64,000 nt of DNA from Vermamoeba vermiformis (Eukaryota): positions 434,001 through 498,000 of the forward strand of contig JBEWZL010000077.1 in NCBI GenBank assembly GCA_045837725.1. The letters run 5' to 3'. Each line of letters opens with the position of its first letter. The first letter of the stretch is position 1. Shown here piece after piece: positions 15,981 through 59,232 of the stretch. The position numbers and the translations under genes are program-made. Under the pieces are notes generated by a model that saw nothing but the letters and a program-made list of their open reading frames with translations, was not told the origin of the DNA and ran no database searches.

Positions 15981-16363
15981 GGATATCTGCGTCATGGTGT
16001 CAGTAAGCAAACGTTAAGTGTTATTGTTGTTTGCATTATGTTGCTTGTAAAATTGAAACTGCGGACAAAGAAAATCTTTTTTTTGTGAGTCAAGAGGAAA
16101 TTTGACCAGCGTTCAAGATCAGGACCACAGCTAGCAGTATTTAAGCTTGAAAGGTACGCGATTGAACATCTTAATTGTACTCTTGCAGTTTTCTGCCTCA
16201 TGTAATCTATTTGAAATCGTTATTGAATTGGAGTTATTATTAGATGTGGCTAATTTCACATCAAAAATATTAGTCAATCGCTTAAAATCACAACGATGCT
16301 AAATTTATTGTCAGATCATAGTTTTGCCCTGTTAGTAATTTTCTTTACAATTTTCATTACCAG

Positions 16364-19106
<2,743 letters not shown>

Positions 19107-21322: not shown

Positions 21323-22417
21323 ATGAGCTATCCTTTAGAAAAAGATAAAACAGGTCGAGCTAGATGCACCGTTTGTTGCGAGAAGATTGCAGCAGGAGAT
21401 ATAAGAGTTGCGTATGGAAAAGGCAAGCACGCACATCTTACTTGCTGGAAGGTATAAAAATATAGACTAGATTAGTTAAATAAGTAGTTTTGTTGCAAGA
21501 GAATTGAGCCAAAAATTTCTTCGAATTAATTAAAGATTTGATTACAGGCAAAAGAACCGATAACCAAGAACTACTTTCACTGGAGCGATAAGGATATGAC
21601 GCCAGATGATATAAATAAAATTAACGCGTACATTGAGGCCAATCGTAAGTTGATCTGTTCTACTTTCAAAATTAACAACGTTGCATAACTAGAAAATGGC
21701 TCCAAAAAGCGCAAAGCTGCTGATAATATCGATGAGACTAAAGTTAAGAAGATGAAGACGGAGATTTTGGCGAATGATGAAGTTTGGGATCTGAACGAAT
21801 CCAAATTTTCAGCGCCGATCACTTTAATGTCAACGGAGATTATGAATATGATATTTACGGAATTAGATTATCTATCGTTATCTAATTCCTCGCTAGTCTG
21901 CAAGCAATGGCTCGTTCTAGCTACCGAAGATGATTTGTGGAAACGTAAGATCCAAATCCGCAATTCTTTCGACTAATTTCGCTCAGAAATATGCATCGAT
22001 CATAATATGGATTCTAAGAAATCGGGAGATCATAGTTGGAGAGCTCATTTCAAGGCCTGTTTGGTAAATTAGTTTCGTCGAAATTGGATCCGGTCTAAAA
22101 ATTAACTTGTTATTATTCAGTATATTTGTTACAACTGCAAGAAAATGCGTAAGGAAGGTCAAGCGGATTATAGGTTCTTTGCGCCATTAGGAGCTTATAT
22201 GTGCTTCAAGTGCATCCGCTTGAAAAAGTTCGCAATGCTCAGTAAATGGGAGTGCAGAGCTGATTACGGCTTTAAAGAAAGTGAATTGCTTAATGCGGGC
22301 TTAAAATTTGTTATTAGAGATGGCTGCAGACATTTCCTCAAGTCTCAGGTCCTTGCCTTGCATCAATTAAAATTGGACGAAGCCAACGCGCTAGATGCCG
22401 AAAGCGATGACGAATAA
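21323..22417 (+). CDS. PARP-type zinc finger + F-box + XPA-like C-terminal domain protein
   Basis: EKDKTGRARCTVCCEKIAAGDIRV...HAHLTC (zf-PARP); LMSTEIMNMIFTELDYLSLSNSSLVCKQW...DDLWK (F-box); CYNC...CFKC...MLSKWECRADYGFKESEL...HFLKSQV (XPA-like). Confidence 0.75.
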
Positions 22418-23815: not shown

Positions 23816-23999
23816 AATTAATCACGTATAATCTAGTTGTGCTTAATGTACTTAAAGAAAGAAGTATTGACGCGTCGTAACATTTTTTTACGGAGATATC
23901 TTGGGAGATCTAGATCTCGTGACCGAAAAAAAATCTCCACACCCCCGAAAGGCAGAATTTTATCTCACAAGCCAGAAGAACACCACAAGTGACACAAAG

Positions 24000-25968
24000 A
24001 TGGTTAACGTATCGTTTTCTTCCTTGCTTGTGCTCCTGTTAGTTGGATGCGCTGCCGCGCAATTTAGATTCAGCACTTCGGACACTACTTGCAGCAACTT
24101 CGTGCAATGGAATAGACTCGCCTTACCCACGACTGCAACGGCTCCCACTAGACGCTTCGATATGGCTGTTGCTGTGGATCCCAGAACAAATAATTTATTT
24201 GTGACCGGCGGAACCTCAGACACCTTCGCTGTCGCCTCTGATTTGTTTAAATTCAATCCAGGTAATATTCATGATTCCATATGTTCATTTAGATATTAGC
24301 GCGCGATCTTGCGGTAACCGTTTTGAAATCTGCTTATTTTATTCTTTACGCCAATTGCTTGCTAACCTTAATATTATCGTGTAGAAAAGTCTGAGTGGAT
24401 TGCATCGCAAGCGGAGAATGACACTACTCCTGGACCCATTTCAGACCACACCGCGACTTACTTCAACAGATCCTTGTTAATTTTTGGTGGAAAGGTCTCT
24501 GACAATGAATTAAAGAACAGCTTATATATCTATGATATTGGTAAGTATATTTACATGTAGATTTTTAATTCATTATGACATGTCATTTCGGAGCGGACCG
24601 GATGTCCTTGTGCTTTGATTCATTTTCATAATTTTTGCTTGATTTGCGTATCTCTAATTCTTTTTGTTCATATGATCAATCTTCTTAGTCTCGATTATGC
24701 ATTAATCTTGACCTAATACGTGTATTTAAAATAGATAAGGATTCTTGGACCAATCCCAATACCACCAACACTCCTGCACCCCGTTACGGTCATAGCGCTG
24801 CCATCTACAACAACGCTTTGTTCATTTTTGGCGGTAGATTCACCGATGGTTCTCAAACTAACGAACTTTGGAGCTTGAATCTGTGTAAGTCTCAACGAAA
24901 AAATGTTCTCGTTCGGCTAATGCCCGCGGATATTCATACTATATTTAAAGAATTACTTCTACTGTCAAATGCTCAATAGACAAATACTCGTCCATTTTGC
25001 CTAAAAAAGTAATTACGGATGTAGTTCCGAAATTAATGATTTGTGCTTGCAGCGACCTTCAACTGGACTCAACACTTCTCCACTAAAAACCCTATTCCTC
25101 GTTTGTGGCACACTACTGTTTTGTTGAACAACAAGTGGATCCTTTACGGAGGTTACAACGGAACATCGGGAACATCCGACGTTTGGAGCCTTGATTTTGG
25201 TACGGTATCTTACAATATGTCTTATAACATATAACATGAGCATTCTAGCGCTTTTTTAGTCCGATTAGCGCTTACACAAAAGTCTGTTACATCCGGCAAC
25301 TTTTCGAAACATTACAAACCCACCCTAATCATGATCAAAGTCGTTAACTATTATATATTAATATTTTAATATGTAGCTACCCTTCAATGGACTGAAATCT
25401 CTTCCACGTCCCCTCTGGATCCCAGATCGGGTCACGTCGCTTTTGTTTTGGAAGGAGAAATGTTTGTCGTTGGTGGCGAGTACGACGACCCTAATGGATT
25501 GATTTTGAACAACAACGACGTCTGGTCTTTTGATCCTGGTAAGTTTGAGACCTGCAAGTCTCCAATGGAATCGCATCCGCTATCGCGAGACGTTTTGACC
25601 CTTAAGATTCAATTATTTCAATTTCATACGGCCTAATTCACGTTACTATTCACATATATATACTGATATTAATTTAATTAGCCACTAACGAGTGGACTAT
25701 CTGGTGCTCCGTTGGTAACTCCATCCACCCTCGTCTCGGTGCTCGTGGTGACGTTGCTACTCTCGGTGGTGTTACTGGTGGACTTATCTTCGGTGGTCTT
25801 ACTACTGACACTGCTTTCAATGCCGTCTACGCTTACAACGATGTTTGGGCCATGAGCCTCGTGCCTAGCCCTCCTACCGCTCCTACTGCTCCTCATACTC
25901 CTCATACTAACCACGCCACTACTCTCACTTTGACCACCGCTGCTATTGCTACTGCAGCTTTGTTCTAA
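24000..25968 (+). CDS. Secreted Kelch-repeat beta-propeller protein, probably GPI-anchored
   Basis: Signal peptide; six Kelch-like blades (LFVTGG, LIFGG, FIFGG, ILYGG, FVVGG, LIFGG, with downstream W); Pro/Thr linker; hydrophobic C-terminus NHATTLTLTTAAIATAALF*. Confidence 0.85.
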
Positions 25969-26128
25969 AAAATTTGTGGATCTGCATCAAAATAAACGTT
26001 GATTGTACTCAACAAATATGAATATGACGCGCTTTAAAAGTTTATAAGGATCCATCTTAAAATAAAATATTTATAAATACATTTACACTCTTACAAAACA
26101 AAATTGAGTAAAATCTTTTGGATGCGTT

Positions 26129-29100
26129 TTAATCATCCTCAGCAACAATCAACGACTCGCGATCCTTCTTTGAAGCCTTGCTACTGGCTCGCGAAAGTTT
26201 GCCGCTCTTAGCACCACCTTCTTCAGTCAACAATTTGTCCAAGAGTTCGTTCATGGCAGCACCAGTGTCAGCCTCTTCGAATTCATTGAACGCCTTGCGC
26301 AATCTCTTTTCGCTTCGTGCGATGTGTTGTTGCATGTAGCCCAAGGCGTTGGTTTTGACGTTTTCGGGCACTTCGAGTTCCATATGCATGTGAGCGGTGT
26401 GCACTCTTTCAGGGTCCTATAATCAAATACATTAACACCTATTATTATACCAATCATACATTTTCTTAAGGCCCTCGAGTAGAATATAAATATGATAAGG
26501 CCGCATATTTTGATGATATCCTAGTATGGAAAAGTACGTACCAAGAGTGAGGTATAGAAGTTTTTGATCTTGGGAATGTTGCGGTCAACAAAGTCAGCAA
26601 CTTTCTCCATGTATTGTTCCTTAGTATTGACTGAGGCCATGTTAGCCAAGTTCTGCAACACTTTAGCGATCAAGACCAATTGTCTTTGCACGACTTCGTT
26701 GGGGTTTTGTTGCAACAGGCCGTAGTATTGAGGAGCAGTAATAGCCGGGCAAATGAATCGCAAGAACAAGAAGCCTCCGACTGCCTTGTAGACGGCGTCT
26801 TCTGAACCAAATCGCATCTTGATGGCCGATTCCATGCGCACGAAAAGATCACGGAATTCCCTGAAAAATACGTTAGCCTATTTGATCTGCTAATTTTTGG
26901 CAAGTTTCATGGTACTTACGAAGGCACGTTTTGTTCGTTCTTGATAATAGCACTCAAAATCTTTTGACAGGCAAGAGCAAGTTGAATAGCGTTAGATTCA
27001 GTATCAGCATCGGGGTTGCTCAACTTGTTCGGATCGAGCTCCATTTCAATGTTCAACAAACTAGCGCCGTTTTCAGGGTCTTCGGCGACAGGCGCATCTC
27101 CGTCAACATTGGCTCCGGGACGAGAGAAAGTCGAAAGTTCGTTGATGACGGTGGCCAAAGTAAAGTACAAGTACTTAGTACCAACCATTTTAGAGTAGAA
27201 TCTAATAATAGCTATGATTAGTAACAGCTTTCTATTGTTAAAAAAGAGTAGGTGTCACGTACTTGAACATTTTGCTGGCCATAGAGTTCTGACGGAAAAT
27301 TGTGTTTTCACTGCCAGAGTTGATAATTTCAGTCTGACAGAAGTACTGCAACACTTCGGATGAAATGCCACGTGATTGGGCCAAGAAGATGACAGCACGT
27401 GCTACAGCGTCTTGTTCCGTGGGATTGGTGATATCGAACAAAGTCGACAAGAACGTACGGTCTTTGTTGAGCAAGATATCCTCCAACAATCTACAAAAAC
27501 ATTCATTAGATCTGTTAATATCAAGATAGAGGCGTATATTACGTACTTGTTATAATCTCCGTCTTTGAATTGTTCTTTGGAGTCGGTCTTAAAGGCGACT
27601 TCAACGTAGTCAGGCTCAACGACCGTGACAACAACACCTTGTCTTCTTCTTCTGCGACGAATGAAGAAGATTGTCAAGAAGACCGCACCACCTGCAATGA
27701 CGGCAGCGGCAATGACAACACCAGCAATGAGACCAGGGTTCGTTGCGGCAATGACGCTCGGGTCTGAGCATTCACCAGAACCCCAGCTGTCAGCGGCACA
27801 TTGATCGGCTGACGAGCACTTGTTGTCAGAGAAACACCAGTTACACAAGTTCTTCTGTTGACATCTGTTACAATCCCTCTCGAGACTGCAATCTGTAGGC
27901 GAATAATTAGGCATTGGTATTATATAAACTGATTGAGTTGGATCGTACCGAGATACTGGAAGTCGATGGGACCAGCAAGAATAGTGCCGCGATAGATAAT
28001 TGTCAGCGGAACAATGCCATCAACAGCTACTGAAGGAGGTGTGCAAGTGATGCTGCTGTTTGATCCCGTAAGAGCATAAGCAGGAACGCTAGCGGTACCG
28101 AATTGGCAGTAGAACGGCGAGTCAATCGTTGATTGCAGTACACTACGACGAGACTGGGTCGTGTTAGGTTGCAACTTGTCCAAGATCTCCAAGGGTCTGT
28201 TGAAGGACACTGTGATCGGCTCAGTGCCGTTCAGAGTGACAAAGGTGGGCGTGACACTGAGAGACAAGCACGAGTCCAAGAAGATGCCTTTTGAGCTGCA
28301 TCGGGCCTCACCAACACACGTCTGATCACCGACGCACCAACCGCAGCCAGTTTGAGACATGCAAGAGTCACCGCATTGCGAGATCGACGTAGGATTGCAA
28401 CCGAAGAACGAAAAGTTAAGACTTCTTCCCGTGTAGTCTGCGTTGTTGAGCAAGACACGGAGCTCAACTGTGCCAACGGTGTTGCGCGTGCTGTTGGGAG
28501 TGTAGCACTGCACAAAAGTGTCTTCTACGGTGACGACAGGCTGGTGAATATCGCCGAAAGCGCAAGACAAGAATGCAATGTTGTTTTGGAAGAAAGGACC
28601 GCCATAGATAGTCACCAAATCGCCACCTTCAATTTCACCTCCTGTAGGACGAGAACGCTCCAAAACTAAAATAAGACATTAGTTATGTGAGCAGGAGTTA
28701 GGTTAGGTCCCTCTATTTACCTGGACAGCTAGTAAGGGCAGGGAAACCTGTTGGGTTGCAATCAAGTGCGCAAGATCTAGCGCACCAGCCGCATCTAGGC
28801 TTTTCAGCAGTGAGGCACGTGTCGCAAGTAGATGAATCAGTGCATTCTTAACGAGTGGTTAGTAATCACAAACTGATTTGATATAGTGAGAACGACTTAC
28901 TGTAGTAGTAGAAAGGAACAGGATTGGTGTAGGCAGATCCGAAGACTTGGATTAAGACTGAACCTGTGCCAGTGGTCGGTGATGCCGGTGAAATACAGAA
29001 GACGTTGCTACGAGCAATGTCAACGAATGTAGCTTGTGTCACGACAACATTATTATCTGAAAAATCGTTAGTTTTCGGATCTAAGTTAGTCGGTCAGATC

Positions 29101-32100
29101 TTACTTGGCAGAGTGAAAGAGCATGTGACGTCGGATATTTGAAGGCTGTTGAATGAAGTTAAGCTGAGCGGACCATTCAAAGCAACGTTTTGGCCGCCAG
29201 AAACTTCATCACGGTTCGGCGAGGCAGTCAACAAAACTGGGTTACTCGCGTCAGTACACGGATCCAAAATTCAAGTTTTATCACTTACTAGGGCAACTCT
29301 CGACTTGAGCAATAGCTGCTGAGCATGTACTAGTATAGAGCTTGCAGCCAATGCCATTGGCTTCAGAGCTGCACCAGCGGCACTTGGGTCTCAAGACGTC
29401 ATCAACGCACGTGTTGCAAGAAGCACCCGTGCAATCTGAAGCACGAAGAATATTTAGCCTATCGATACATAACTCGTCATTATATTGAAGCCGTACCATA
29501 AATCACGTAGCTGATATCTGGGGTCAGTCTGACTGTGTTGTCTTTCCAAACACTCAACTATAAGCAAAAGTTAGTTCAGTGAAACACAAATGTAGCTAAG
29601 TAAGAACTTACTGAGTGAGTACCGAGTGTCAAAGTCGTTGGAAGGGCACATGTAACGTTCTTAGTACCGCTGTTGTACGTCGCGGTAGTAACTTCAGATG
29701 CGGTGGACAAACCGGTCGCGTCCCACGCGCAAACTAAGCTCGCGAACTGCGCACCAGCAATCAAGAAATCTCCTGATAAAGTGACAGTAGGACCGCTAGC
29801 AACATCGTCTATGTGCGTTGAAGGAGGATAGACCGCAGTAACGACTAAAAATAGCATGGATTAGCGGATGCGAGTAGTTTTGGCGCGGATCTTTAAACTT
29901 ACCAGGGCAAACGGTTAACGCAGTGCAAGTCGTAGTGTTTTTGTAATTGCAAGCGCTATTTTGGGCGCTGGAACAGAAGACGCATTCGGGTCTAGTCGCT
30001 TCGTTACAAGCCACGCAGTATTGGTTTACCGTTGCGCAATCTAATGAATGGAATTTTCTTAACTAGGCAACAAAAAATAAACATTGAATGCAGATCCGGA
30101 ATTACCATAAAACATGAACGTTGTGTTGGTCGTAGCATAAGGAGCTCCGCTGTAGTAAAGAGTAACGGGTACATTCTTATCAACGGCTCCGTTTCTTTCC
30201 GTATCAAACGTAGTCTTGTCCATTTGAGGAGATAAGCACGAGACTTGGTTGGGCGGAGTAATTGTTGCTATAAATAGATGCGTTAATTAGGCCTAATTTA
30301 ACGTGGAAAGTTACGAAATTACGTACCTGGAACTCGTCCAATAGTAGTCAAGTTAAAATCGCATTCAATTGACTCGCTGCCAGTCAGATCTGGTTGAACG
30401 TTGAACGTTACACGAGAGCCTATCGATTAAACGTCATTAATAATTATACTTTTGTCAGATTGAAGCCTTTAGACACTTACTGGTGCGAATAGATGAGCTG
30501 GCAGGTGAAAATGAATTGACCGCTAATAAAGGAATAATTAATCAATAGTTTGATGAATATACGCTTATACGTACCAGGGCAAGTTCTCAAAAGCGAGTCC
30601 GTGCAATTAACAGCAAATCTGCATCCACCAACTGACGGGCACCATCCGCAACTTGGATGTAAGGACAAACAAGATCCGCAATCCAAATTGTTATTGCAAT
30701 CTACGGATCGAGCTGTTAGTTCGCCACTTATAAAATAATAAATATTATGCTAATCATACTTATCACTTGAACAGAGGCTGTCGTATCAAAAGGCAAAAGA
30801 GCATCAACATTGTACAATCCGGCAGTCCAAGTTTTAACGGCCGGCGATAATCCCGCTAAAAAAAAGGTTAATAAAATGGTATTTGGAATATATGATAATA
30901 GTTTCTTACAAAAGCCATTCGTTGGAAGGTCGCAAACAAGTTGAAACGGAGACAATGAAAGAACGTTCGAGAATCGTGTACCGTCACCAGTCCATCTGCA
31001 GAGAGCGCTCAATCGATCAATTCCAGGAACAGGATAACTGCCGTTGAATGTAAGGTAATTTCCTCCCACCATCGCCGTACGATTTAACGAAGGCTGATAA
31101 TCGATGGGGTTTGGTCGGATTTCGGCAGAAGCTGAAAAAAAATATTAACAAAAATGTCGCTTAGTGGTCGCTAATATTCTTACCAATGCACTGTCTGATA
31201 TCGTGTTCACCAGCACCTTTCCAATCAGGACAAAAAATACTGTCGAAGCGAGTTTTGCATTTGAGCGAGGACCAGCAATAGCCGCTACAAATATTATTTT
31301 AATAATTTTATATAGTAATAATAATATAAAGAGAGTACTAACCAGTATTCTGGATCCAATTGCGTGCATTGTGCGCAAGAATAAAAAACATTATTGACCT
31401 CAGTACTGCATCCTAGTCATGATAAAGTTATTAAGAAATGATACTAACATAGCATATTAAGCTTAATACGTACTGGTATGAGTTACGATGACCAAATTGA
31501 CAGAGGCTTGCGTACGACTTGCGCCAACGAGATAAGCGTCGGTATTCGGAATGGCGTAAAGCGCTCTAATTTCAGGATAGATCAGGACAGCGGGAGAGAC
31601 GGAAAGATATTGAACTGAGCTGAATGGCTGGAGATTTCGCAGATTGACTCGAACGACCATTGCGCGGTCTGTGGCTTGAGCTGTGTCATAGAAAGTTGCG
31701 GCCCAAAAAGAAACATCGTGGCCGTAATCTAATGAGATAATTAATTAATAAGATAACTTAGATGTATAATAATGCAATTAAGGGGTACCTATTGACGCAG
31801 CAGTGAGTTTTGTACGAGGAATGAAGGAAAAGCGAGTGAATACGAAATCAGCCGGAGAAATCTCGAAAATGAGACCAATGTCTGTGCCCATAAGAACTCT
31901 AGCGCGAGTAGGATCAAAGGCAGAGCACGTGACCTAGCAATATTATGTTATATATAAAGAACAATAAAATAATTATTATCGAAAACGCACTTGACCGAAA
32001 CCAATAGTTTTGCTTTCAAAGAAAGAGGTGATTAAGCGAGTGTTGCTCGTTGGTGTCTTCCAAATACTTCCTCCAGCTCCTCCCATTAAGATCTATAGAG

Positions 32101-32982
32101 AAATACTGTTATTGACCTTTCTTTTGGATTTAGAAATGGATCGAGAACAAAAATGTTTACCAGATCGTGAGTACTATCCAAGACAATTGTTCCGATACCA
32201 CTAGCACCAAACTCAGTATTAATTGCTTGAGGAGATGCGGCACCGAAGATATCTCCTATCACAAAAGCACCTGCATCCAACGCTGCCCAAAGGTTTCCTT
32301 TGTTGTCATAAACGCATTTCTATTTTTGTTTTAGAAAAATGAACGGTTCATTTAAACTTAATGCTGAACTTACGACAATAGCAGACGAAAGGGACACTTG
32401 AAGCGAAACTGCGGTTATTTGGACGGGTGCAGCGCCAAATGCGTCAAAGATGGCTACCGACGTTGAAGTACAATAAAAACCTTCAAATATTTAGTCAATT
32501 TATTATTGTTATTCATATAGCTTGATTACTTACCACGGCCACTTGTGGAATCCACATACAAGGAAACAATTTCGTCCGCGTTTACCGAACCAATTGTTTC
32601 TATATTGCTTTGGACTTCTGTTCCAGACTTGTAAGTGTCTTGATAAACCTGCATAATGAAATAAATAATTGAGGCTATAATTAACTGCAGATGTGCGCGT
32701 ACTCTTATCAACGTTGTTCCTCCCCAAAAGCTGTATATAGTGCCATTAGATAATTCTATATAAGTAACATCATTCATTGTTTGCGAAGCCAAAGAGACAG
32801 TTGAGCCAGAACCAGTCCGTGCCTAAAAAAAATTAATATTTAGTCCTGGATCTGATTCTTGCGTTGTATTTAATCTATCTTACTAATCCAAATGGTTGTA
32901 TAATAGGATAATCTTGTCCAATTGCAAATTGCAAAAGTAAGCTAATAAAAGTAACGATCGCGAGATGCGACTTCGTGACCAT
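26129..32982 (-). CDS. Plexin-architecture receptor A: signal peptide, probable beta-propeller, ~7 PSI, ~6 IPT/TIG, TM, RasGAP
   Basis: Signal peptide MVTKSHLAIVTFISLLLQFAIG; PSI-like CxxC...CGWC...C modules alternate with IPT-like modules (GGDLVTIYGGPF...CAFG...CYTP). TM GLIAGVVIAAAVIAGGAVFLTIFFI followed by RRRRRR. RasGAP motifs TIFRQNS, MELDP, GFLFLRFICPAI, AKVLQNLAN. Confidence 0.9.
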
Positions 32983-33304
32983 CCTCGGACCTTGATTCGT
33001 TAGCAATTATAATAATAAATACTAATATCAAGCGGGACCCCTGGTCTTATAAATAAACGCGTTGAAGATTATGATTTAATCAAATCTTTTTTCTAGACAA
33101 ACTGACATCCTGTCACCGTCCCATCACGCGTCAAAATAAATACTTTCTCGAGTCCGCAAATAAATTTAAAAGATTCTCTGTAAGTGCAACAAGAGTTGAT
33201 TAGGTGGTCGATAATTTTGCTCGTTGATTCATCGAATCCGATATCGTCCAAACCGATCCACGAAACACTCTTGTCCCAACTGCGGATTTGACATATTTAT
33301 CAAA

Positions 33305-36300
33305 ATGAAGTATTCACAGTGTATTTTTATCGCACTATGTTGTGCATCATTATGTTATTTGGCGCAAAGTCAAGATATTGGATTACCAACGGCAGGGATG
33401 AGAGTAAGTGATTTTAATCGAATCTTTGCCACCATATCGTGCACGAATATCACGTCGATGAATTAAAATTATTTGATTCATATTATTCATAATTTCACTT
33501 GCAACAAAACAAAACAAATTGGATCTATAAATAACTCCCTTTACAGTTATCACCCAAAAATTATTTGCACATACCCTTTATCTCCAAGTAATGCCTTATC
33601 GCTAATTGCACGTGTTATTAGGTCTCAAGCTATCCCACATTCCAAGGCGCCAAATCTATCAAATCCGTTCTGTCCTTCTCATTCTCAAACGGCACTCGTT
33701 TCTTCCTTTGGGGTGGCAATAAATTACATATGGTAAGCACCATGCAAATAGCATACATTTCTGTGTTGTGTACGCCAACGGTACACGCGCACATTCAAGA
33801 GCCGCAAAATTTTTATTATGTAGCCACCTCTGAATCGTAAACACCGATGGATTACATATACTCATATAATACTATAGAGCAAAGATACTCCCGATGCCGT
33901 TCCTACGGATTTATGGACCGCTCCATCTTCGTCAGACTTCATCCAGAGCATTAACTACGACGACAAACGAAGTTCAGGTAAATAACCAATTTAATTAAAT
34001 TATACAATATTATTCAAGTCGATTCGTGAGCTAGAAACACTTGGAGTAAGTTCTAACGGATTTGTTTTTTGAAATCTAGTTCTCTTCTGCACCAATGAGC
34101 GCACCTTGTGGACTTATAGCTGGCCCAACGGTCCTGCAACTCAAATTGCTTTCGACCCTGCCACTCAAACGGATCCTTTATTAGTAAGTCTCGCGCGCAG
34201 ATTCGTTCTTCAGGATCCAGTTCTGAGGCTGACTTTGTTCTAGGGATGCATCTATGATTCAACGAGAGATAATTTGTGGTTCATTGCAGGAGGAATTGCT
34301 GTTTCCAAATCGCCAGTTACGAGCAGTAAGTTGGATTCGGGATCGAGCCGTTTCGGCATTATTCGTGCCATAAGGCTTGTTTTAATAAGCATCTTCACAT
34401 AGGCGCAGGCAACACAACGGCGTTCACTACCTCTTTACCATTGAGCGGTGTCTCTTCGATTGTTCTTGACTCGCAGAATGGCAATGTATTGTGGACCTAC
34501 GGCACGGCTCAAGTTCAAATGACGCCGCTTAGCAACGCAAACTTGGACCCCTCTTTCATCTCCTCGCAGTCGTTGGGCATTGGTAACGTAAGTAACAACC
34601 ATGAGACTCGCATGCCATCGTAGAGGAGCATTTTTTGAAAGATCTGAACCAACTTTCCTTCTCGCTTAATTGTGCTCCTATACATAACTAAGCACGCTCA
34701 GAGGCCACTCTTATTAATATGGTTCTTTTATGTACAGATCTTGTCGAGCGCTTACGATCCGGTTCAACAAGTCGTCTATTTGGGAACTGACTTGGGTATT
34801 GGTATTGAAGTATTAACCGTACCGTCATTGGCATTCTCTAGATACTTCATTTTGCCCAATATGCAATACTCATCAATCACCACTGGTATGACTCACATTA
34901 TTCTTTTTTGTGGCTTCTAGAAGATTTAATTAGTTTGCTAATGCTACTTTATAGACCCCTCGCACGGAACCTCATTTTGGGCAGGCTACCAAAACACTTC
35001 CAATACTCAATTCGTTGTTAGAGTTAACGCGGATCGCTTCTCGCCTTTTTCTGCGGTTTCAGTCACTGGCACTGATAGACTTGGTCCTGCAGCTATTGTT
35101 AACAACTTGAACTCATTGTGGACACCTTTCTTCTCACCATCCAGCGCACTTTTCGCCAAAATTCAACTCACAGGTAAGTTCCGGATGCAGCAACAAAGCT
35201 GAATTTTTCCTAAACTTACGCTTTATATTTAGATTGCGGCCTTTACGTCTGCCAACAATGCCTTACAAATGACCCTCAATATTGCGGTGTTTGTTCATCA
35301 GGTCAAGTTTGCACGCTCTCATCTGCTTGTTCAGCCACCTGGCAAACTTCAGGCACGATCAGTTGTCCCGTTGCTGGTGCAGTTGTTCCGCGATCGGGCG
35401 GTACAGAAGGCGGTGATCTTATAACTATTACTGGCCAATTCTTGGACAACAACGAGCTTCTGGATGCGTCTCAAACCACGTGCACTTTTGGATCCGCTGA
35501 TCCCGTTACTGCCTCAACAGTTGCAGCTACTTTTATCCAATGCCGCTCTCCTGGTTCAACCGGTACGTAATACATTACGAAGCATTAATCAAGACGTTGC
35601 TAATAGCCAAAACTAGTCGCGGGCCAGGTCAATCTACAAGTGCGTTACAAAGGCAACAACTGGGGTTCTGCATTGAACTTCACTTATATCAGTAAGCGAC
35701 CATTAACTACGTACTATTTGAACATATTAACTAATCATTTAAAGAATGCGGTGACTTCAGCGGATGCGACGTTTGCACGCGCAATCTAGGTTGCGGTTGG
35801 TGCATGGCTAGCGGTCAATGTACTTCCTCTTCAGCGTGCAACCCCTTGTCCACATGGAGCACTGTCTGTCCTGCTATTTTGGGCATTGCTCCTGCTCAAT
35901 CTTCCATTCGTGGCAGTAAGTTTCTTAAAGTTTCAAGAACTGGCCTACGCGGAGTTTCTTATCGAATTTTGTTTTTGCAGACGTTGTCGTTCAACTTGAC
36001 GTTGTTCCGCAATTGACCAACGAAATGCAATACAGCTGCGACTTTGGATTTGGATCTGGCGCTGTTGTGCCTGCTACTTTGGTGTCTTCATCCAAGCTCT
36101 CGTGCTCGACGCCAACAATCAACTCAGCAACTTGGACAGCTATGCAAGGCAACACTAGCGCTGTGACATTAGGCGCGTACTTGACCTCCGTGTCTCTGCT
36201 TCAAGGTGGCAAATACATCACGTCCTCAGCCCCTCAAACCTTTGCCATTTATGGTAAGCTACTCGACCTCATTTTTAAAGCTTTGAACTTACCTTTCATT

Positions 36301-39300
36301 GGTAGATTGTCCCACTCAATCCAAGCACTGTGATGGATGCGGCGGTGTCGCTGGCTTCACTTTCTCCGAGTGCAAGTTCTGCTATGACTCGGCTGTCACT
36401 CAGTGTCAGTACTCCGATGGAAGTTGCACGGACTCGTCAGGCACTTGTCCCAACATTGCCTCATTGACCCCACCCAGCATGCTACAAGGAGACTCGAGTG
36501 TTACATCAGTGGCACTTAGTGGCTTGTTCTCGTTCACTGGATCTACTCCCATCACCAATCTTGTCTGCATGTGGGACGTAGAGAATACGGCTACCGCGGC
36601 CAATGCTCAAACTGCCTCGGGCATCACAGATACTTCTATCACCTGTCCTGTCCCTGCTTCGTTGCCTCTTGGCACCCATACTGTAATCCCATAATAGATG
36701 CTCTAATTGTCGCTTACTAACATTGGTACAGGTGAGTGTTTGGCGCGATGAAGGAAGTGGATCTTACTCTCGTATTACTTCGAACTCTGACTTCCTCGTC
36801 TACGGTAAGTGTTTCTATTGATAATATACTACATGGTGTCTCACATACTCCTAGATTGCTCTGCTACTGGTCCTTGTTCCTCGTGCGTGTCAGATCTCAA
36901 GCCCAAATGTTACTGGTGCAGCGCTAGCGGACAGTTATCGTGCAAACCAATCGCGGATTCATCGTGCTCGGCTAGTGCTATTACTAACAGCACTCAGTGT
37001 CCAGGTAAGTTCCGAGTTAATTAATTTTGGCGGGATTATTCCCACATCAAATCTTTTAGATTCTAGTACAAAAGTGTCAAAATTAACTTTAATTCGTCAT
37101 TAACGTCAAATCCAATCAATCTAACGCTTTTTTTCAGTCTTGACAAGTGTGACACCGGATGCTGAAGAAGTCGCCGGAGGATCTGCGCTTACTTTAAGCG
37201 GATCTAACATGAAATTGCTATCTTATTCCAATATCAAGTGCCAGTTCACCAATGACGTCGATAATTCAGTTCAATTAGTGGCGGCATCTCCTCCTGTGAA
37301 CGACAACCTTTTGCGCTGCAATGCTCCTAGCGTTAGTACTGCAGCTAACTACCACATAGACATCTTAGTTGGTACTGTGACTCACACGAATAAGATTCCT
37401 TTCATTTATTACCGTAAGTTTACTTCCACCCAGATCGAGCACGATCCGTTACAAATCTTAACTGAGCCTTATAATTCATGCCTTACAATTGATTCGCATT
37501 TTCGTTGTTATTGCGTCGTTGGAAGCTATTTTTAACTCATTTTCTATTCTAGAATGTTCTGCTGAACCTAGCTGCGCGAACTGTCTTGTTGCTCGTAACA
37601 CTCGCTGCAAATGGTGCCTTGGCTCGTGCGCGACACAATGTGCCGTGCCTACTCCTGTCACATGCCCAAGTAAGATTCAAGACTTAATTTTTCTAGCATT
37701 ACTAACGAGTTTTCTAGAAATCAACATTACGGATCCAGTCGAGTCGTACAACAAGGGCGGTCAAACCATACGTGTATATGGTGGACCGTTCGTGAGCTCA
37801 ACAAGCTTGACCTACACGTGCAACTTTGGTGGTGAATTGGGCGTTGTCACTAGTGTTTCTGACGCGCACCTTGAATGCTTGACACCGACACGTGGTGGCT
37901 TTGCTTCGTTCGAGGGTAATGTGGACTTGACTATTCTCGCCAACGGTGCGCCGTACACTGAGGACCCGTACCCCTTCAACTTCTTTGGCTGTCCTATCTT
38001 GCCTTCCGCTACTGCTTGCGGCTCTCAATGCACAGCTCGTTCTGGATGCGGCTGGTGTGTCTCGCAGTCAACGTGCACAGTCGACTTTATGTGCAACACC
38101 GAACAAGACTTCTTCATTGACAAGTGCTACAGTACGTATTAGCTTATAAGAAACCGATCCGGATCTAACTTTTTTGCCAGATGTCACTGTGACACCTAAC
38201 GTCATTCGTGCTGGCTCGAACCAAACTATCACCGTGCAGTTCAATCAGCCCTTGCCTTTCACATTCACATCTGATCCTTTCTTCGGCACGACGACCGGCA
38301 AACGCTCGATCTTGGCTAGTACTTCTACAAACCCGACGATTTCTTGCCGATTTGGCAGTGCTAGTGTTGCTGCTGTCCCGAACTTGAGCAACAACCCCGA
38401 TTCATTCACGTGTCAGTCCCCTGTCATTCTTCAAGAGGGTAACTTGCCGTTCACTGTGCTCTGGAACGGTAATCCGCTCGTCGAATCGGTCGACTTCCAA
38501 ATCACAAGTACGTATCACTTTTGACGCTACAAAGGCCGCGTATTAATCTTATTCGTTTAGACTGCGGTGGCTACAACACTGATTGCTCGCAATGTATCCA
38601 ACATCCTTACTGCAACTGGTGCTTCGAGAGCAACACGTGCTCAGAGGCAGACATTTGCGCAGCTGACAAATGGGGAGGAGCTCAATGTCCTTCAGTCATC
38701 GAAACTAATCCTCAAGCACGTGCTGGCCTCATTGCTGGTGTCGTGATTGGTGGTGTTGTGATCATTGGTGGTGTCGTCTTTTTGATCTTGTTCCTTCGTT
38801 ACCGCAAAAAGAAGCAACAGGGTCTTGTCGTCGACTTCAAAGAGCCCGATTACACCGAGGTTGCTTTCAAGAACGAAGTCACCCTGCAGTACAAGATTAC
38901 TGCTAAGGACGACTATGAGTATGTACCTAAGAGTTGTTAAATTTTTCACGTGATCCGGATCTGACTTTTGTACAGGGAGTTGGAGAACATCTTGATGAAC
39001 CGTGACCGTACCTTCCTCAAGGCTGTAGCTGCGGTGACAAGCGCTACTGAAGATGATGCTGTAAGTACAAGATACTGTTCATAGAGCCATGAGCTAACCT
39101 CGTGAAACATAGGTCTCGCGTTCTTTGACTTTCATCGCTCACAAGCGCAAGGTGGCCTCAGACATGATTCAATACTTCGCCTCCGATGAGGTTATGAAAG
39201 CTAGTAAGTAGTCTCAGTTATAATTGTCCTACTGCACACGACGCTAACTTCATTTTAGAATCCGAAAACACAATTTTCAGACAGGACAGTTTGTCCAGTA

Positions 39301-40600
39301 AGATGTTCAAGTACGTAGTAGTCACTTTCTTATACGTCAATGACTAGTATACTAACGCGTCACTCGTTCAGGTACTACTCCAAGATTGTTGGTACTCGTT
39401 ACTTGTTCTTCATGTTGGCGCGTGTCATCAACGAGTTGAACGAGTTGGCTGAAACTGCCGCAGCGGCCGAGAACAAAGAGAGTAAGTTCAATTAATTAAG
39501 CTCGAGTAGACTTATTAAGATATTAATTTTTGTTTAATAGACTTGCATGGTAGCAGCGCTAATTTGTTGTCAATGTCCGGCACCACTACGGATCCGATGT
39601 CACAAGGTACCAACGATTTGACTGCTAGTGAAGGTGGAAGCAAGAGAAAATCAACCAAGAAGAAGAGTGTCATTGTGTACGAAGGTACCGAGATTAATCG
39701 TGCCTCTGCTAGTTTGTTGAACTTCGATATGGAGGTAAGATCCAGATCTGTTTGACACGTGTCACTTTTTCCAAGTATTAATATTTTATTGTTTAGTTGG
39801 ACCCTGTCTTGCTCGAGAACAAGGAAGTCGATACTGAAGCAAACGTCTATCAGTTAGAATTGGCCTGTCAAAAGATTCTCACCGTGATCATTAACAACGA
39901 GAACAAAGTGCCTCGGTAAGTCATTTTTGAATGTCTATTGCAATAGTACAATGTATTAATATCGTTCTATCCATAGTGAGTTCCGCGAGATCTTTGTGCG
40001 TATTGAGAATGCGATCAAGTTGAAGTTTGGTAACGAGACCGCGGCTTACAAGGCAGTCGGAGGCTTCTTGTTCTTGCGATTCATTTGCCCGGCTATTACT
40101 GTGCCTCAATACTACGGCCTTATTTCTGAAATTCCTAACAAGAAGTGTCAACGTCAATTGATCTTGATCGCTAAAGTGCTGCAGAACATGGCTAACTTGG
40201 CGACTATGTCACACAAAGAGACGTTCATGAAAGACCTCGAGGGATTCATGACGAAGAACCAGCCCAAGTTCGTTGACCTTTACCAGAACTTACTCGTACG
40301 TGCATAATTATAGTGTCTTATGTGATTGTGATTAGTACTAACCTGTTTTGGTTCAAACAGAACCCCGAAAAATTGCCCGACGCCCGTGCTAGACTTTCGA
40401 TTGAAGTGCCCGAAAATGCACGATTGAACTCACTCGCGTACATGCACCAGCACATCCACCGCAGCGAAAAGAAGTTGCGCACGTACTTTGAGCACTTGGC
40501 TGAACAAGACGCTGACAAGGCGAGAGAGATGAATAAGTTGCTCGATGAGATTATGCAAAACTACGGAGAGCCGCCAAAGAAGAAGAGCGACGAGAAATAA
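33305..40600 (+). CDS. Plexin-architecture receptor B, paralog of A
   Basis: Signal peptide MKYSQCIFIALCCASLCYLAQS; same PSI/IPT order as A. TM GLIAGVVIGGVVIIGGVVFLILFL. RasGAP motifs TIFRQDS, MELDP, GFLFLRFICPAI, AKVLQNMAN. Confidence 0.9.
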
Positions 40601-40870
40601 GATTTTTATGATTGTATTATAGCAAACTTTATCTGTTCCTTTAATGAACTATTTTGTCAAAAAGCTAGCACGAGTACTGTAGTCTCGAGAACTAATTTAA
40701 CAGGGCAAATTCGAAGAAAACCGATTACATTTAAAATCGCTCAACAGCACGTCATGTGCCACTACCCTGCTAGTTAATCTTCAATATAAATAATTTTTTT
40801 AGTATCAATTACGATTTTAAAGCTTGAAGACATGCTGTTTGCCTTGTGTTGGTGTCAGCAAACCTTAACT

Positions 40871-42861: not shown

Positions 42862-45800
42862 CTATTTAGCATAAGACTTCTGGCACTTCTTAAGATTCTT
42901 CACTAACATAGCGAATGACGGTCGTTTGTTGGGGTTATGTTTGGTGCACAAACGGATCAGATCCACAAACGCGGGGAATTCACGCTCTAACTCAGGAGGC
43001 ACTGGAGGAGCATTACCTTCCTATAATCGAAAAATAAATCAATAAAGTTAAACTGTTCCAGCAGCAAAATCAGGAAATGAAATTTGACACTTTGACACTT
43101 AACGGATTCGGATCGATTGACAAGTAAATCGTATTGAGTTAAATATAGAAGTGATTGACAATGCGTTCTATATGAATTTCAAAGCTTACCTTGACGTCAT
43201 CAAGCGATCGATCAGGCAATCTGTTCATCAACAACTCCCACAGAATGATACCAAAGCTGAACACGTCAGCCTTCGCAGTGTAATTACGTGAAGTCAATAC
43301 TTCAGGAGCCATCCAGTTGTATGTTCCCGTAGCGATCGTCATGTTTGTTTCGGCAGTACGACTTTCACCGAAATCAGCAACTTTCACTGAAAGATTGTCG
43401 TCGACCTACAGCGGATCCGATTAGTCAGATCTAATTTTTTCACAGAACGGCAGTTTTGACGTACCAACAAGTTCAAGCTCTTGAGATCACGATGAATTCT
43501 GTTGTTGCTGTGCAAGAAACTCATACCACGAGCAGCTTCAATGGCCATTTGAATCTTTTGGCCCATTGACAACCACTTACGACCGTCCTTGCCCTTTGAA
43601 AGGTGGTTAGTACTCGACAGTTGCCATATTTGGTAATCGTACTTGTTTGCCCAAAAAGCCGTCCAAACTGCCGCCAGAAGCGAATTCAGTTAACAAGAAA
43701 GCATTGCCAGGCTCAGAAGCACCTCCGATAAACATCAACAAGTTCTCGTGGTGAAGCAATCTGTACACGTGTAATTCCGCCAAGAAGTCACGTGGAGGTG
43801 GATCTCGTTTACCCAAATCCCAATTCTTGCACGCCACTAAAAAGGTAAGTTAGATCTTAGTTGATCTGATCCACACTTTGCGTGAGATCTACATACCTTT
43901 AGCGCCATGCACACCGGCTAAAAATACAGAGGCACTAGCACCACCGCCGAGACGATTAACAATTTCAACGGCCTCTCGCGGCACGTGCCAGTAATCGTCT
44001 ACGGCACCTTGGAGAAGTTGCGTGGCTGAAGCAGATACTCGCAATGGGAGTACGAATGATTCGATCAAATCGCTTTCCTCGACTAAAAATTAAGTAGCAT
44101 TAGGCACTGTCAAGGAATGGACGAAATTTCGTGGACTTACTTTTGAATGTAAGAGTCAAAAGTTTTCGCAGATCAAGTGGTTTGTACAACACGACGGTGA
44201 CCTTGATGACAGTGTTCTTAGGATCAACTTGACCCTCGGCAGGACTAACAGCCATAAAATATGAACGATTGAAGTCTACGGAGTTAGGCACAGTGCAGGT
44301 AACTTTTCCTTTCCAAGAGTTCGTGACTTGGACCGAGAAAATAACAGGCTTGTTCAATTCGACGTTTTTCTGAATTAATTGGTACGATGATATCTAGAAA
44401 AATATTTAAATTAGTTTAGTAAATCAAGGTAAAATGTTTTTGAGATCCGGATGTACCTTGATAGATGCGGACTTTAACTTCTTCTTAGTCTTTGAATTCT
44501 CTGCGTAATAAGTCTTATGTACTTTCTTTTGAATTTTTTCGGTTTCTTCAGGGGTCATATTTAACATGGTGTCCAACAAAACCTTCGTTTCATCAGCGTT
44601 GTACTCGGACTTGCAACCCCTACACATCGAATACATTAATCAATCTATACTATCCATATCGATATTTATGTATTAGATACGTACTTGAGCAAGTATTGAG
44701 TAAGTTGTTCTTCACCTGAAAATAAGTAATGGTTAGATCTGGTTGAAAAAGTTTGGATCAAGCATTGGTGACTTACCGAGTCTTTGACTGGGACGCAATG
44801 GCGGGAAGACTTTAACGTTCTTATTGTTATTATCAAGGTCGTTGAGCAAGGCAACGGACAAGTAACGTTCGCTTTTTTCTTCGTCTTCAGTCTGAAAGTA
44901 GATGTAGTTAGTGGATGCGGAGCTCAATTGAAGCGGAATAATTTTGTTTAGCTTACCTGAGACAAAGACACAGCGTTATCGTTCTTGAAAGGATATTTAC
45001 ACCAGTTGCTATTCACACGAATAAAGTCGTCAATGTCCGCGTATCTTTTGTCTTCGAAGGCAAGTTCAGTGCCACCCACACGCTTTACATACATTAGAAA
45101 CCATATGAAAATTACTATATGGCTACGCACCTCCAAGCGGTAGTTCATGATACCCTCGGGCAAGACTACAGACAAAGTGTAACAGCCAGGCAAGCTGCTG
45201 AAGCGCACGAGGAACGTGCCAACAGGCTCGTCAGACACGAAGTACTTTGTTTCTTCGACATCAAAATCACCGAAGAAGAATCTAAGGTACATATGTATGA
45301 GTCTTAAGCACGCCATTGTAGTGAAGTGTATATGCACTTACGGCTTGCGTGCCATCTTGTCTCGGCAAGGTGTGATGAAGAACTGTGAGTAGTGCTGCAC
45401 GACGTGAGTAATGGACGGGAACAACTTCAATGTCTCGCCACCATCTCCTCCTTCACGCATACCGAACCTATTTAATAATAAGGTTAATTTTGTGGTGCCA
45501 ATTTACCTTTGCGGACGTACCCTCCAGGATGAGTTTCGACTTTCAGTGAACCGACCATTTCTCCAGTCTTGTAGTTAATGGCAAATGAACCAGGATCTGA
45601 CTTGCTGAAACGAACCAAAAATGTTCCGTGCTGCTCCGGTTCGAGCAACTTTTGAGCTTCAGCGTTGGTCAAGAAACCGTGGAACCATTCTTGTGTCATC
45701 ACACTGCGCACCTTGTCGAGCGATTGTGACAAAGGACCGAAGCCCTTGAGGAATTCAGCCCATTTGTACACGGTCACGAAGCCAGTGTCCGAGTTATCTA

Positions 45801-47950
45801 CGTAGTTGAAGTCAGCTCCGTGCACATACTTCATCGTTAAAAGTCATTAAAAGTCCATACCTAACACGCTCTTGAGACTCTGTTTCATGGTTTCGTCGAG
45901 CACACCAACGGTGGTTTCATAAACGTTCAAGAAAGAGGTCCAAGGCACGACGAATCGCTACAAAGATCATATCAGTAAGAGCTACGTATGATTGAATTTA
46001 AGGTCGTTTTTCTTACGTCAATGCCGAATCTTTCACGCCACAGGGCCTGGCCTTGTGAATCGTGTACGAGTTGAACTGTAAGTGAAGCAAAAGCCTCGCG
46101 GTTCTTGCCATCATTCTTCAATATTCCGCGGTAAAGCTCGTCAATGTAATCGCAGAACAAGTTCAATTCGTATTGCATTGAGTGTGTCAACTTGTCCAAA
46201 CCACCACTCAAACGAGAGCTCTTGAAATATCTTCCCAATCTGTTCGTCACTTGGGCTTGAATTAACAAGTCCAACAATGCCGTGCAGTACGAGAAAAATC
46301 TGTCCAAATGGTACGTGAACAACACTTGATGCGGTGTTTGCTTGTCAATTGTTTCTTTGATAGCGTTTAGCTTCTTTTCGATCAACCTCAAGTTCCATTC
46401 AAATTCAAAGTAATCGCAGTCAATCTTGTCGTTATGTAAGCTGAGAAACTCGAAGATCTTTCGCACTCTGTCAATGTTCATTTGAAGTGTTTCAATCTTT
46501 TCCGTGTTAACGCGCGTGAGCCATCGAGGAAGAGTTCTTGTCCGAGAGTCGCTGTTGCGTGCTGAAGTCACCTACAAGCATCAAAGTGTTAGATCCGCAC
46601 ACGATAGTTTGGACAATTGGGAGCGAGTTATAGAAGACACTTACGCCAAATAAATCTCTGTAGTTTTCAGCCAAAAGCAAGCACAAATCAACGGCCAACT
46701 TTTCGTTTCGCTTGAAATCGTGGATACCCTTGCGGAGAATCAAAACAGGACCTACACTCGTGACAATTAGACCTCAATTGTATAGTTATTAGTAGCACCA
46801 ACAAGTACGTACCGAAGACGTAGGCGAACTCGTACTTATTCTCGGCAACGGAAGTACTCGACAAGACGTAGTAAAACAAATCACAGAGTTCAGCAAGTGT
46901 GTCTCTGTGAACGTCCGGCAAGTAAGCCAAGACTTGGCGCAAGAAGCTCATTTGATCTTCACGCGAGTCAAAGATATTTTCTGCGTAATAAAGAATTATA
47001 ATTAGCCTCAAAATTGATTCAAAATTATGACGTAAATAGTATTTGAATCACAAGTTACGAATGCTATTAGTGAAACAATATTATATTGTTGTACTTACGA
47101 GTAGCACCGAGGAATGGGTCGCATAATTCGAAGGTCAAAAGAGGCACGGGCAATTTGTGTAAAAACGTTCGCAGAACACTCACGAGCGTTGAAAGCTTGT
47201 AATCTTTGAAATTGACATCTTTGCCTTTGACTGTTGTATAAAAGAAATGTTAGTGTCGTCTATACTAAAATAGTTATTTTAAGAATTTCTAGTATTTAAT
47301 TGTTTGGCGGTTGCGTAAAAAAGGTGCATCCAAAAATATCGGCGGCCGATGTTCCGAGTTTCAATTAAAAAAATAAAATAATTCAAAGAGATTTGAAATG
47401 AGGATAAATACATTCGATGCAGAAATAGCATAAAATCAAATGGAAAAATTCAAGATCAAATCTATTCAAAATGCTTATTAAATTCGTTTGTTTTTATACT
47501 GATAATTCAAATGGACTGGTGCTATTATTTAAAAGCATTGAGAATTAATCAGCGAAATTGATAGCGAAAATCAGAAATTTAATTGGAACGTAAAAACAAT
47601 TAATTTAACTATCAAATAGTATTTTGCACCTAATAAATGGCATTTTGGTCTTATTTACTCGAGTAATTCTTACCTTTTAAATGATCCTTTAATTTTTGAA
47701 CTTCAATCCGACTGAGTGAATTTCCAGTGTTCCACAAAGAAGGCGTATTTTTGGCTATTAGGCAGTAAAATTAGTATTTTGCAATAAATTATTATTATTG
47801 GCACGAGGAATAAGCTAGTATACCTTCTTTTAAGAACTTGCAGATCTCTGAAAGCCAATCTGGAACTTGCTTAACACCCAAATCTGAGCTACGCTCGGCT
47901 AAAATTTGCTGTAAACTAGAGCCAAATATATGACGATTTGTAGCAGCCAT
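42862..47950 (-). CDS. Multidomain TKL kinase: RhoGAP-like, helical bundle, EF-hand, SH2, SH2, linker, kinase
   Basis: IFGSSL...VPDWL...LRTFLHKLPVPLLTF...LPDVHRDTL (RhoGAP fold). LWRERFG...VPWTSF...GFVTVYKW...FGP...WFHGFL...GTFLVRFS (Cbl-TKB-like EF+SH2). Second SH2 FFGDF...GTFLVRFS. Kinase HRDLKSLN, DFG, GTYNWMAPE. Confidence 0.88.
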
Positions 47951-59200: not shown

Positions 59201-59232
59201 AAAGTGAAAAATTGATTGATTTCGATTTGTAA
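50234..59232 (+). CDS. Very large alpha-helical protein, probable EPG5-like autophagy tethering factor
   Basis: About 25 or more exons, over 2000 aa, helical composition. Motifs reminiscent of EPG5: PFWEQFFRIYF, IPCYQGEDCVSPALV, LPWQD. The start codon is uncertain. Confidence 0.55.

Follow-up and report, generated by a model that had tools for sequence, protein, structure and literature searches.

Plexins are the textbook example of a receptor with a GTPase-activating (GAP) domain of its own. They combine a Sema head with three PSI and six IPT modules, a single transmembrane (TM) helix and a cytoplasmic GAP that is split by a Rho-binding domain (RBD). In amoebozoans, single-pass surface proteins built of IPT/TIG repeats are represented by TgrB1 and TgrC1 of Dictyostelium. 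To our knowledge, these have neither a propeller head nor alternating PSI modules nor a GAP domain. Plexins are regarded as an invention of the lineage of choanoflagellates and animals, and neither plexins nor semaphorins are recorded in two surveys for Creolimax, Capsaspora or the other unicellular eukaryotes surveyed (PMC6374515, PMC10084454). Here, a stretch of 64 kb from Vermamoeba vermiformis (contig JBEWZL010000077.1, positions 434,001 to 498,000; hereafter the window) was analysed, in which an earlier note had recognised two plexin-like receptor genes at 26129-40600. Both encode a signal peptide, a head, a PSI/IPT stalk, one TM helix and a RasGAP domain. Taken as a whole, they are quite probably best explained as amoebal type I receptor-RasGAPs with a plexin-like design that was put together independently.

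The genes were modelled with a splice-aware dynamic programme, and the 5' ends were mended by eye and against the orthologue P0001. Gene 1 (26129-32982, minus strand) consists of 29 exons and encodes 1728 amino acids (aa) from signal peptide to RasGAP; its model was corrected with P0001 and is backed by spliced joints. Its paralogue, gene 2 (33305-40600, plus strand), consists of 28 exons and encodes 1732 aa according to the model and the spliced joints. The last bases of the stop codons are 26129 (-) and 40600 (+), exactly the outer borders given in the earlier note, and the two peptides that it had quoted were found again, namely SAFDPTRARVLMGTD in exon 31790-31933 (-) and SAYDPVQQVVYLGTD in exon 34738-34884 (+). 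All introns of both genes carry GT at the 5' end and have a median length of 57.5 nt in gene 1 and 60 nt in gene 2; introns in the window are short in general, with GTAAGT/GTACGT donors and CTAAC-like branch sites.

Single exons were searched with Pfam (25 of gene 1 at E ≤ 0.1 and 26 of gene 2 at E ≤ 0.01). In gene 1, PSI was matched on four exons, TIG on one (7.8e-12) and RasGAP on exon 26542-26859 (3.8e-18, 66.6 bits). In gene 2, PSI was matched on six exons, TIG on three, TIG_plexin on one and RasGAP on exon 39978-40295 (2.3e-16, 60.7 bits). TIG_plexin was also among the matches in the stalk of gene 1, and PSI, TIG and TIG_plexin were all matched in P0001. Both proteins start with a hydrophobic, signal-peptide-like leader, which was read directly from exon 1 (32884-32982 (-) in gene 1, with 80% identity to the N-terminus of P0001; 33305-33403 (+) in gene 2, with the same length and phase). 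The head follows on exons 31474-32822 (-) of gene 1 (approx. aa 34-367) and 33622-35173 (+) of gene 2. The stalks (27735-31412 (-) and 35233-38724 (+)) alternate seven PSI-like with six IPT-like modules. The PSI-like Cys modules are of the type C..C..C..CxWC and are interspersed with segments of approx. 90-100 aa; a regular expression found all seven in gene 2 and six in gene 1, where the seventh was recognised by eye. The ectodomains contain 13 and 10 N-glycosylation sequons, respectively.

Each protein has a single hydrophobic segment (19-mer above 1.8 on the Kyte-Doolittle scale) followed by a basic stop-transfer stretch. Hydropathy and motif positions placed the TM helix of gene 1 at 27660-27734 (-), followed by RRRRRRQ (27639-27659), and that of gene 2, which is rich in Gly and small-xxx-small motifs, at 38725-38796 (+), followed by RYRKKKQ (38797-38817). 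Both helices carry Gly/Ala at positions i and i+4, and the family consensus starts with GLIAGVV; small-xxx-small motifs often drive the pairing of TM helices. A motif search located the juxtamembrane motifs EPDYVEVAF at 27591-27617 (-) and EPDYTEVAF at 38842-38868 (+). In both genes, PSI7, TM helix and juxtamembrane segment share an exon with one continuous open reading frame (ORF). The regular expression, Pfam and hydropathy thus concur with the numbers of modules, the signal peptide, the single TM helix and the RasGAP described before.

The earlier note would have been refuted by ectodomain and GAP lying on separate transcripts, and four sequencing runs were compared with 25900-40800, namely the contigs of run X6, the RNA nature of which is presumed, and three RNA-seq runs labelled as the same species. 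X6 contigs reached all 30 bins of this region, and the gaps in their alignment equalled the predicted introns exactly. At least 15 joints were listed, with 35 more beyond these. The five listed for gene 1 (26415/26541, 26859/26920, 27201/27263, 27892/27949 and 28665/28721) and the ten listed for gene 2, from 37413/37553 to 40295/40361, all correspond to predicted introns. In gene 2, joints flank the exon with PSI7, TM helix and juxtamembrane segment (38507/38561 and 38918/38976, onward to 39481/39541), and the chain from 37413/37553 to 39481/39541 links IPT modules, this exon and the GAP. Reads of the three RNA-seq runs were found on the conserved GAP exons only, with 95-99% identity at a cut-off of 95%, which indicates a diverged strain as their source; 13 of them support joint 26415/26541 and seven support joint 39310/39372. 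Complete ORFs with TIG and RasGAP were also found in transcriptome-derived proteins of Vermamoeba vermiformis (P0002, 1668 aa) and Echinamoeba exundans (P0042, 1689 aa). Ectodomain and GAP are thus one ORF on one transcript, and the objection of separate transcripts fails.

The RasGAP domains with their C-terminal tails lie on four exons of gene 1 (26129-27490 (-)) and eight exons of gene 2 (38976-40600 (+)). As stated before, the arginine finger (FRxxxxxxK) and the FLR motif are intact in both genes, and so is the conserved Lys: FRQNS is located at 27283-27297, FLFLRF at 26755-26772 and IAKVLQN at 26650-26670 in gene 1, and FRQDS at 39276-39290, FLFLRF at 40065-40082 and IAKVLQN at 40167-40187 in gene 2. 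The segment between finger and FLR holds only a low-complexity insert, of 25 aa in gene 1 and approx. 70 aa in gene 2. In P0001, the RasGAP model PF00616 was matched with 6.8e-31 and 108.2 bits (gathering cut-off 28.3). Against PDB sequences, the cytoplasmic domain of P0001 was most similar to SynGAP (1.8e-24) and NF1 (6.8e-24), followed by p120GAP (1.1e-19) and IQGAP1 (3.4e-06), and no match to a plexin cytoplasmic domain was obtained among them. FRQNS aligned with FRENT of SynGAP and FRGNS of NF1, and FLFLRF with FLRF. By Pfam, neither Plexin_cytopl (PF08337) nor the RBD (PF20170) was detected in P0001 or six other members of the family, in agreement with the conventional, RBD-free RasGAP proposed earlier. 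The accessory domains C2, PH, SH2, SH3 and Sec14-PH/CRAL_TRIO_2 were likewise missing from these seven proteins by Pfam; the NF1-like hit P0007 does contain PF13716. In a GAP tree, nine receptor GAPs were separated from two NF1-like proteins with a support of 100/100, these two being the only outgroups and the relations within the family being unresolved. The domain is a canonical RasGAP of the SynGAP/NF1/p120 kind and, judged by its motifs, is predicted to be catalytically competent.

The head gave no match to any Pfam family on the 13 exons scanned (six of gene 1 and seven of gene 2). The fold was modelled with AlphaFold2 on the orthologue P0001, not on a protein of the window, from an alignment of nine rows. 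The model is an all-beta, compact propeller with seven blades (mean predicted local distance difference test (pLDDT) 59.8, predicted TM-score (pTM) 0.67; confident for residues 120-300), and comparison of the head profile with itself gave weak repeats with offsets of approx. 45 and 90 residues. The head is therefore predicted to be a compact seven-bladed propeller, which agrees with the propeller-like N-terminus suggested from the sequence. YncE, YVTN and WD40 propellers were the best structural matches, concordantly in Foldseek-PDB, VIA-wide and BFVD. Only the fold class is established by these, as the rows within 1 Z unit tie with many WD40 propellers. Look-alikes in the Atlas belonged to the generic propeller families NHL, Ldl_recept_b, SGL and Reg_prop with scores of at most 0.91 and are leads only.

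The earlier note had asked whether the head is a Sema domain or another propeller, and nothing in sequence or profile pointed to Sema. Sema (PF01403) was not detected by Pfam in P0001 (E ≤ 0.1), the 13 head exons of the window or the six further members (E ≤ 0.01). When residues 23-364 of P0001 were compared by phmmer with 1.84 billion representatives, seven hits were obtained, of which five were short pieces of closely related proteins and two were unrelated; none was a Sema protein. Alignment of the head profile with the Sema region of a plexin-B2 (residues 1-482) by hhalign reached a probability of 1.1%. In the structural searches with Foldseek-PDB, VIA-wide and BFVD, no Sema or semaphorin appeared among the best 50 rows of each, which is an absence from these lists and no exclusion. 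Since the propeller of Sema has seven blades too, the head may yet be related to it at the level of the fold.

A fish plexin-B2-like protein (P0054), taken from a profile search with seven members, served as control. With the same Pfam library, Sema, Plexin_cytopl (1.3e-171) and Plexin_RBD (9.5e-39) were all found in it. Between P0001 and P0054, only the PSI/IPT stalk aligned by BLASTP and hhalign, and the cytoplasmic parts did not. The family stalk aligned with residues 483-993 of P0054 with an hhalign probability of 96% (E 3.5e-9; BLASTP 2e-7), collinearly from PSI1 to IPT3. The plexin architecture claimed for the two genes thus holds for the order of the parts and the alignment of the stalk, and does not extend to a Sema signature or to a Plexin_cytopl GAP with RBD. 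Because these two defining features of plexins were not found, the proteins are not plexins; by domain content, the family is a plexin analogue.

P0001 (1719 aa) was found when the databases were searched with the longest exon, on which it shares 88% identity; it sits on contigs of only 5.3-6.2 kb. A search with its full length yielded eight proteins, six of which contain TIG and RasGAP. Pfam matched RasGAP in all six further members (1e-26 to 1e-34; 93-118 bits), TIG in all six and PSI in four, and at E ≤ 0.01 it gave no Sema, Plexin_cytopl or RBD in any of them. The plexin-type TIG model PF17960 was matched in P0002 (1.9e-10), which is the only Vermamoeba member found and shares approx. 38% identity with the genes of the window. 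All named members come from tubulinean amoebae and stand in the databases as hypothetical proteins only. A metagenome locus scan with P0001 yielded no relative. The profile search with the seven-member alignment was dominated by TIG-repeat proteins (7999 candidates scored) and missed known members, so that it has no bearing on the taxonomic range. In the literature, with supplements and subscription journals outside the coverage, no description of this architecture or of a TM receptor with a PF00616 RasGAP was found. The two genes belong to a small, unnamed family of type I single-pass receptor-RasGAPs that is probably amoebozoan.

Conservation is uneven along the protein. Between gene 1 and P0001, identity rises from 71% for the head to 79% for the stalk and 96% for the GAP, and a fast ectodomain on a constrained enzyme would fit a receptor. 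The seven full-length members that were aligned agree in every PSI cysteine and also share, without exception, the finger Arg, F-L-R, the Lys of IAKVLQN and EPDY..VA. EPDYxxVA[F/Y] was present in all ten rows of the family, followed after approx. 18-21 residues by a second motif, [D/N]YxxL, in eight of them. In P0003, P0029, P0005/P0039, P0006 and P0042, the last PSI is followed by an extra IPT-like module of approx. 100 aa before the TM helix is reached, and this module is absent from the genes of the window, P0001 and P0002; the number of stalk modules therefore varies across the family.

A possible mode of action can be outlined, in which the propeller would bind an extracellular or cell-surface ligand, and clustering or a conformational change would be relayed by the stalk and by the TM helix with its many small residues. 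The GAP might thereby be positioned or activated under the site of contact, where it would switch off Ras, possibly Rap, locally. In an amoeba, Ras-dependent protrusion or cup formation would be suppressed at that site. The sequences show the elements of topology, the identities of the domains, the intact catalytic motifs, the single transcript and the conservation, whereas ligand dependence, substrate and cellular role are inferred.

The physiological substrate could be Rap instead of Ras, as it is for plexins, which we regard as rather doubtful. SynGAP was the best match in the PDB, and both SynGAP and the GAP1 family are dual GAPs for Ras and Rap; SynGAP is described to speed up the hydrolysis of GTP by both (PMC13634398). 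The score of NF1, however, was practically equal to that of SynGAP, and the GTPase specificity is not readable from these sequences. The RapGAP activity of SynGAP depends on its C2 domain, and no C2 domain was detected in P0001 and the six further members.

It is also on balance unlikely that the proteins are adhesion or recognition molecules with a constitutively active, tethered GAP that is not gated by a ligand. The ectodomain would then mediate adhesion to cells, prey or substrate, as the IPT/TIG-rich Tgr proteins do in Dictyostelium, and the GAP would lower Ras at any place where the protein gathers. The lower identity of head and stalk compared to the GAP is as in recognition proteins, and Pfam revealed no autoinhibitory element or RBD-like switch in P0001 and the six further members. 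TgrB1 and TgrC1 are polymorphic recognition receptors according to a preprint (bioRxiv 10.1101/2025.08.01.668227). On the other hand, the juxtamembrane motif is invariant and the paralogues share 56% identity in the TM/juxtamembrane part compared to 34% in the stalk, which speaks for a conserved element of coupling or regulation. Beyond this, the evidence does not separate a tethered GAP from the ligand-gated receptor that we prefer.

With regard to the origin, the earlier note had left a pre-plexin receptor class and convergent assembly side by side, and the evidence leans to the latter. The architecture was most likely assembled independently of plexins, from shuffled PSI/IPT modules and a pre-existing RasGAP. 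This is favoured for three reasons. The introns in the stalks (27949-31412 (-) and 35233-38507 (+)) are mostly in phase 1 and lie just 5' of the first Cys of a PSI module, and phase-1 introns at module borders are the pattern expected from exon shuffling. PSI domains are reported for integrin-beta homologues of amoebozoans (bioRxiv 10.1101/2020.04.29.069435). Finally, the published surveys cited at the outset report no plexins or semaphorins in protists other than choanoflagellates.

According to the contrary view, the whole architecture would stem from an ancestor shared with plexins, and Sema and the RBD-split GAP would be derived; we consider this improbable. The order of the parts is identical, the stalk is collinear with that of plexin-B2 as described, and the plexin-type TIG occurs in family members. 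In addition, Sema is seven-bladed too, and the plexin GAP is a distant relative of RasGAP. Against this, Pfam, phmmer and hhalign gave no sign of Sema in the head, its top structural matches are YVTN/WD40 propellers, and with approx. 340 aa and three cysteines (P0001) it differs from the approx. 500 aa and the conserved disulfides of Sema. The GAP is far nearer to SynGAP/NF1 (1e-24) than to plexin, for which no hit was obtained, and the RBD was not found. PSI and IPT are also mobile modules, so that a periodic array of them would be collinear in any register, and a shared ancestor would need many losses given the absence of plexins and semaphorins from the other unicellular eukaryotes surveyed. 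If it existed nevertheless, propeller-PSI-IPT receptors with an intrinsic GAP would predate the split of Amoebozoa and Opisthokonta, and the amoeba family would retain the ancestral state with a plain propeller and a contiguous RasGAP, while plexins would be a derived holozoan branch with Sema, RBD insert and Rap specificity, a scenario to which we give little credence. If the RBD of plexins lies between the arginine finger and FLR, the variable insert in this segment would then mark the later RBD site. An old PSI-IPT receptor scaffold shared with plexins is possible.

Hardly credible at all is a wrong fusion of ectodomain and GAP genes or contaminating animal DNA, for although the models are our own predictions, spliced contigs chain the exons of ectodomain, TM helix and GAP, relatives have full-length transcripts, PSI7 and the juxtamembrane segment share a single ORF in the TM exon, the intron style is alike in both genes and in the few junctions of neighbouring genes examined, and 20 of 28 intron positions are common to both paralogues.

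Several points weigh against an independently assembled amoebal receptor-RasGAP as described here. The RNA nature of run X6 is a guess, the RNA-seq strain is diverged and covers the GAP exons only, and none of the 15 joints listed is 27490/27547, by which the TM exon of gene 1 would be linked to its first GAP exon. The head model is of moderate quality (mean pLDDT as given above, below 50 for residues 1-73 and 300-342) and was derived from an orthologue and nine rows; a model of residues 22-532 of P0002 (head, PSI1, IPT1 and PSI2) was poor (pLDDT 52.8, pTM 0.35). GAP activity, substrate and ligand are inferred from sequence, and a regulated GAP is not distinguished from one that is simply tethered to the membrane. 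Lastly, a single-exon gene for a 2-oxoglutarate (2OG)-Fe(II) oxygenase of 405 aa at 19270-20484 (-) has its nearest Atlas clusters (0.97) mostly in fungi, with Basidiomycota being the commonest, which is at odds with the amoebal affinity of the receptor genes.

The two genes are arranged head to head, and the spacer of 322 bp between their divergent ATGs (32983-33304, from the coordinates) may be a shared promoter. Their proteins share 35.5% identity over approx. 1650 aa, with 30% in the head and the values given above for stalk and TM/juxtamembrane part. As the alignment column and phase of 20 out of 28 introns of gene 1 are matched in gene 2, the pair derives from an old local duplication and not from a retrocopy. 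A third copy was not found in the window by tblastn with P0001.

For the neighbouring genes, 112 of the 150 ORFs of at least 75 aa outside the two receptor genes were scanned by Pfam. Approx. 2.5 kb separate the end of gene 2 from the exons of a putative single SH2-SH2-kinase gene at 43142-45843 (-), with SH2 at 45487-45843 (2.3e-13) and 44951-45337 (1.1e-6), followed by a Tyr/Ser-Thr kinase domain at 43142-43849. EPDYxxV together with the second [D/N]YxxL resembles a long-spaced immunoreceptor tyrosine-based activation motif (ITAM); a link to the tandem-SH2 kinase would be pure speculation. On the other side, the gene of a Kelch-repeat propeller protein, for which a hydrophobic leader was recognised by eye at the N-terminus, lies at 23871-25965 (+) and converges on gene 1, approx. 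160 bp from its stop. Further on this side, an ORF with an F-box domain (8.9e-9) lies at 21689-21973 (+), and a gene at 16250-19000 (+) encodes a stretch rich in Pro/Ala/Ser and a long segment rich in Glu/Arg/Lys/Gln, besides a putative LIM-like double zinc finger that was recognised by eye. Ankyrin repeats (12632-13243) and a TKL-type kinase domain (14854-15524) at 12632-15524 (+) look like an ankyrin-TKL kinase gene, which are common in amoebozoans. A long run of plus-strand ORFs at 50386-59229, probably one very large gene, gave no Pfam match among the pieces scanned. Scans of the window for Rfam families and tRNA genes gave no match and hence no taxonomic marker.

An ORF at 3095-3709 (+) carries a fungal-type Zn(2)-Cys(6) binuclear cluster domain (Zn_clus, 3.5e-10), a non-animal marker. 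The view of the earlier note that the genome is not that of an animal is borne out indirectly by this ORF, the short introns with CTAAC-like branch sites and the named relatives, all of which are amoebae. SH2-kinases argue against a fungus and Zn_clus against an animal. A fungal source, to which Zn_clus, the CTAAC-like introns and the Atlas neighbours of the 2OG oxygenase could point, is made less likely by the SH2-SH2-kinase gene, the TKL kinases and the amoebal relatives, and Physarum was set aside because its confirmed introns are repeat-rich, with a median of 231 nt (PMC4758236). The GC content of the window (approx. 36-48% in 2-kb bins) is near the 41.7% given for the Vermamoeba genome (PMC10980511); the identity to P0002 stated above is, however, low. 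Judged from the sequence, the genome is more likely that of an amoebozoan than that of another non-animal member of Amorphea, and hardly that of a holozoan.

The amoeba family combines the layout of plexins with a canonical RasGAP and is expressed in free-living amoebae. It would imply that the design by which a contact outside directly switches off a Ras-family GTPase inside arose more than once, or that it reaches back much further than has been assumed. For amoebae, the family also provides a direct and testable connection from recognition at the surface to the Ras patches that drive pseudopods, macropinocytosis and phagocytosis, and the biochemistry of this kind of catalytic domain is well known.

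Among known systems, plexins are closest. Like them, the amoeba proteins are type I receptors with a propeller head, as predicted, an alternating PSI/IPT stalk, a single TM helix and an intrinsic GAP that has an arginine finger and belongs to the RasGAP superfamily, and the logic of switching off a small GTPase inside upon contact outside is probably shared. They differ from plexins in the head of approx. 340 aa, which is not recognisable as Sema, in the strict alternation of seven PSI and six IPT modules, in the short juxtamembrane segment, in the restriction of the named members to amoebae and in the GAP, which is contiguous, of the PF00616 type and SynGAP/NF1-like, whereas that of plexins is PF08337 split by PF20170. 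Met and RON (Sema-PSI-IPT-TM-kinase) have a propeller head, a PSI/IPT stalk and a single TM helix in common with the family, and the IPT of Met was matched with 2.2e-4; their output is a tyrosine kinase instead of a GAP, and their head is Sema. From YVTN/YncE propellers such as the archaeal S-layer YVTN-PKD protein 1l0q, the head differs by an identity of only 8-9%, with no relation at the sequence level. With SynGAP, NF1 and p120GAP, the amoeba receptors share the catalytic domain, in which the FRxxS finger, FLR and Lys align. They form a clade of their own against the two NF1-like proteins, and for membrane targeting they use a TM helix and a large ectodomain in place of accessory domains.

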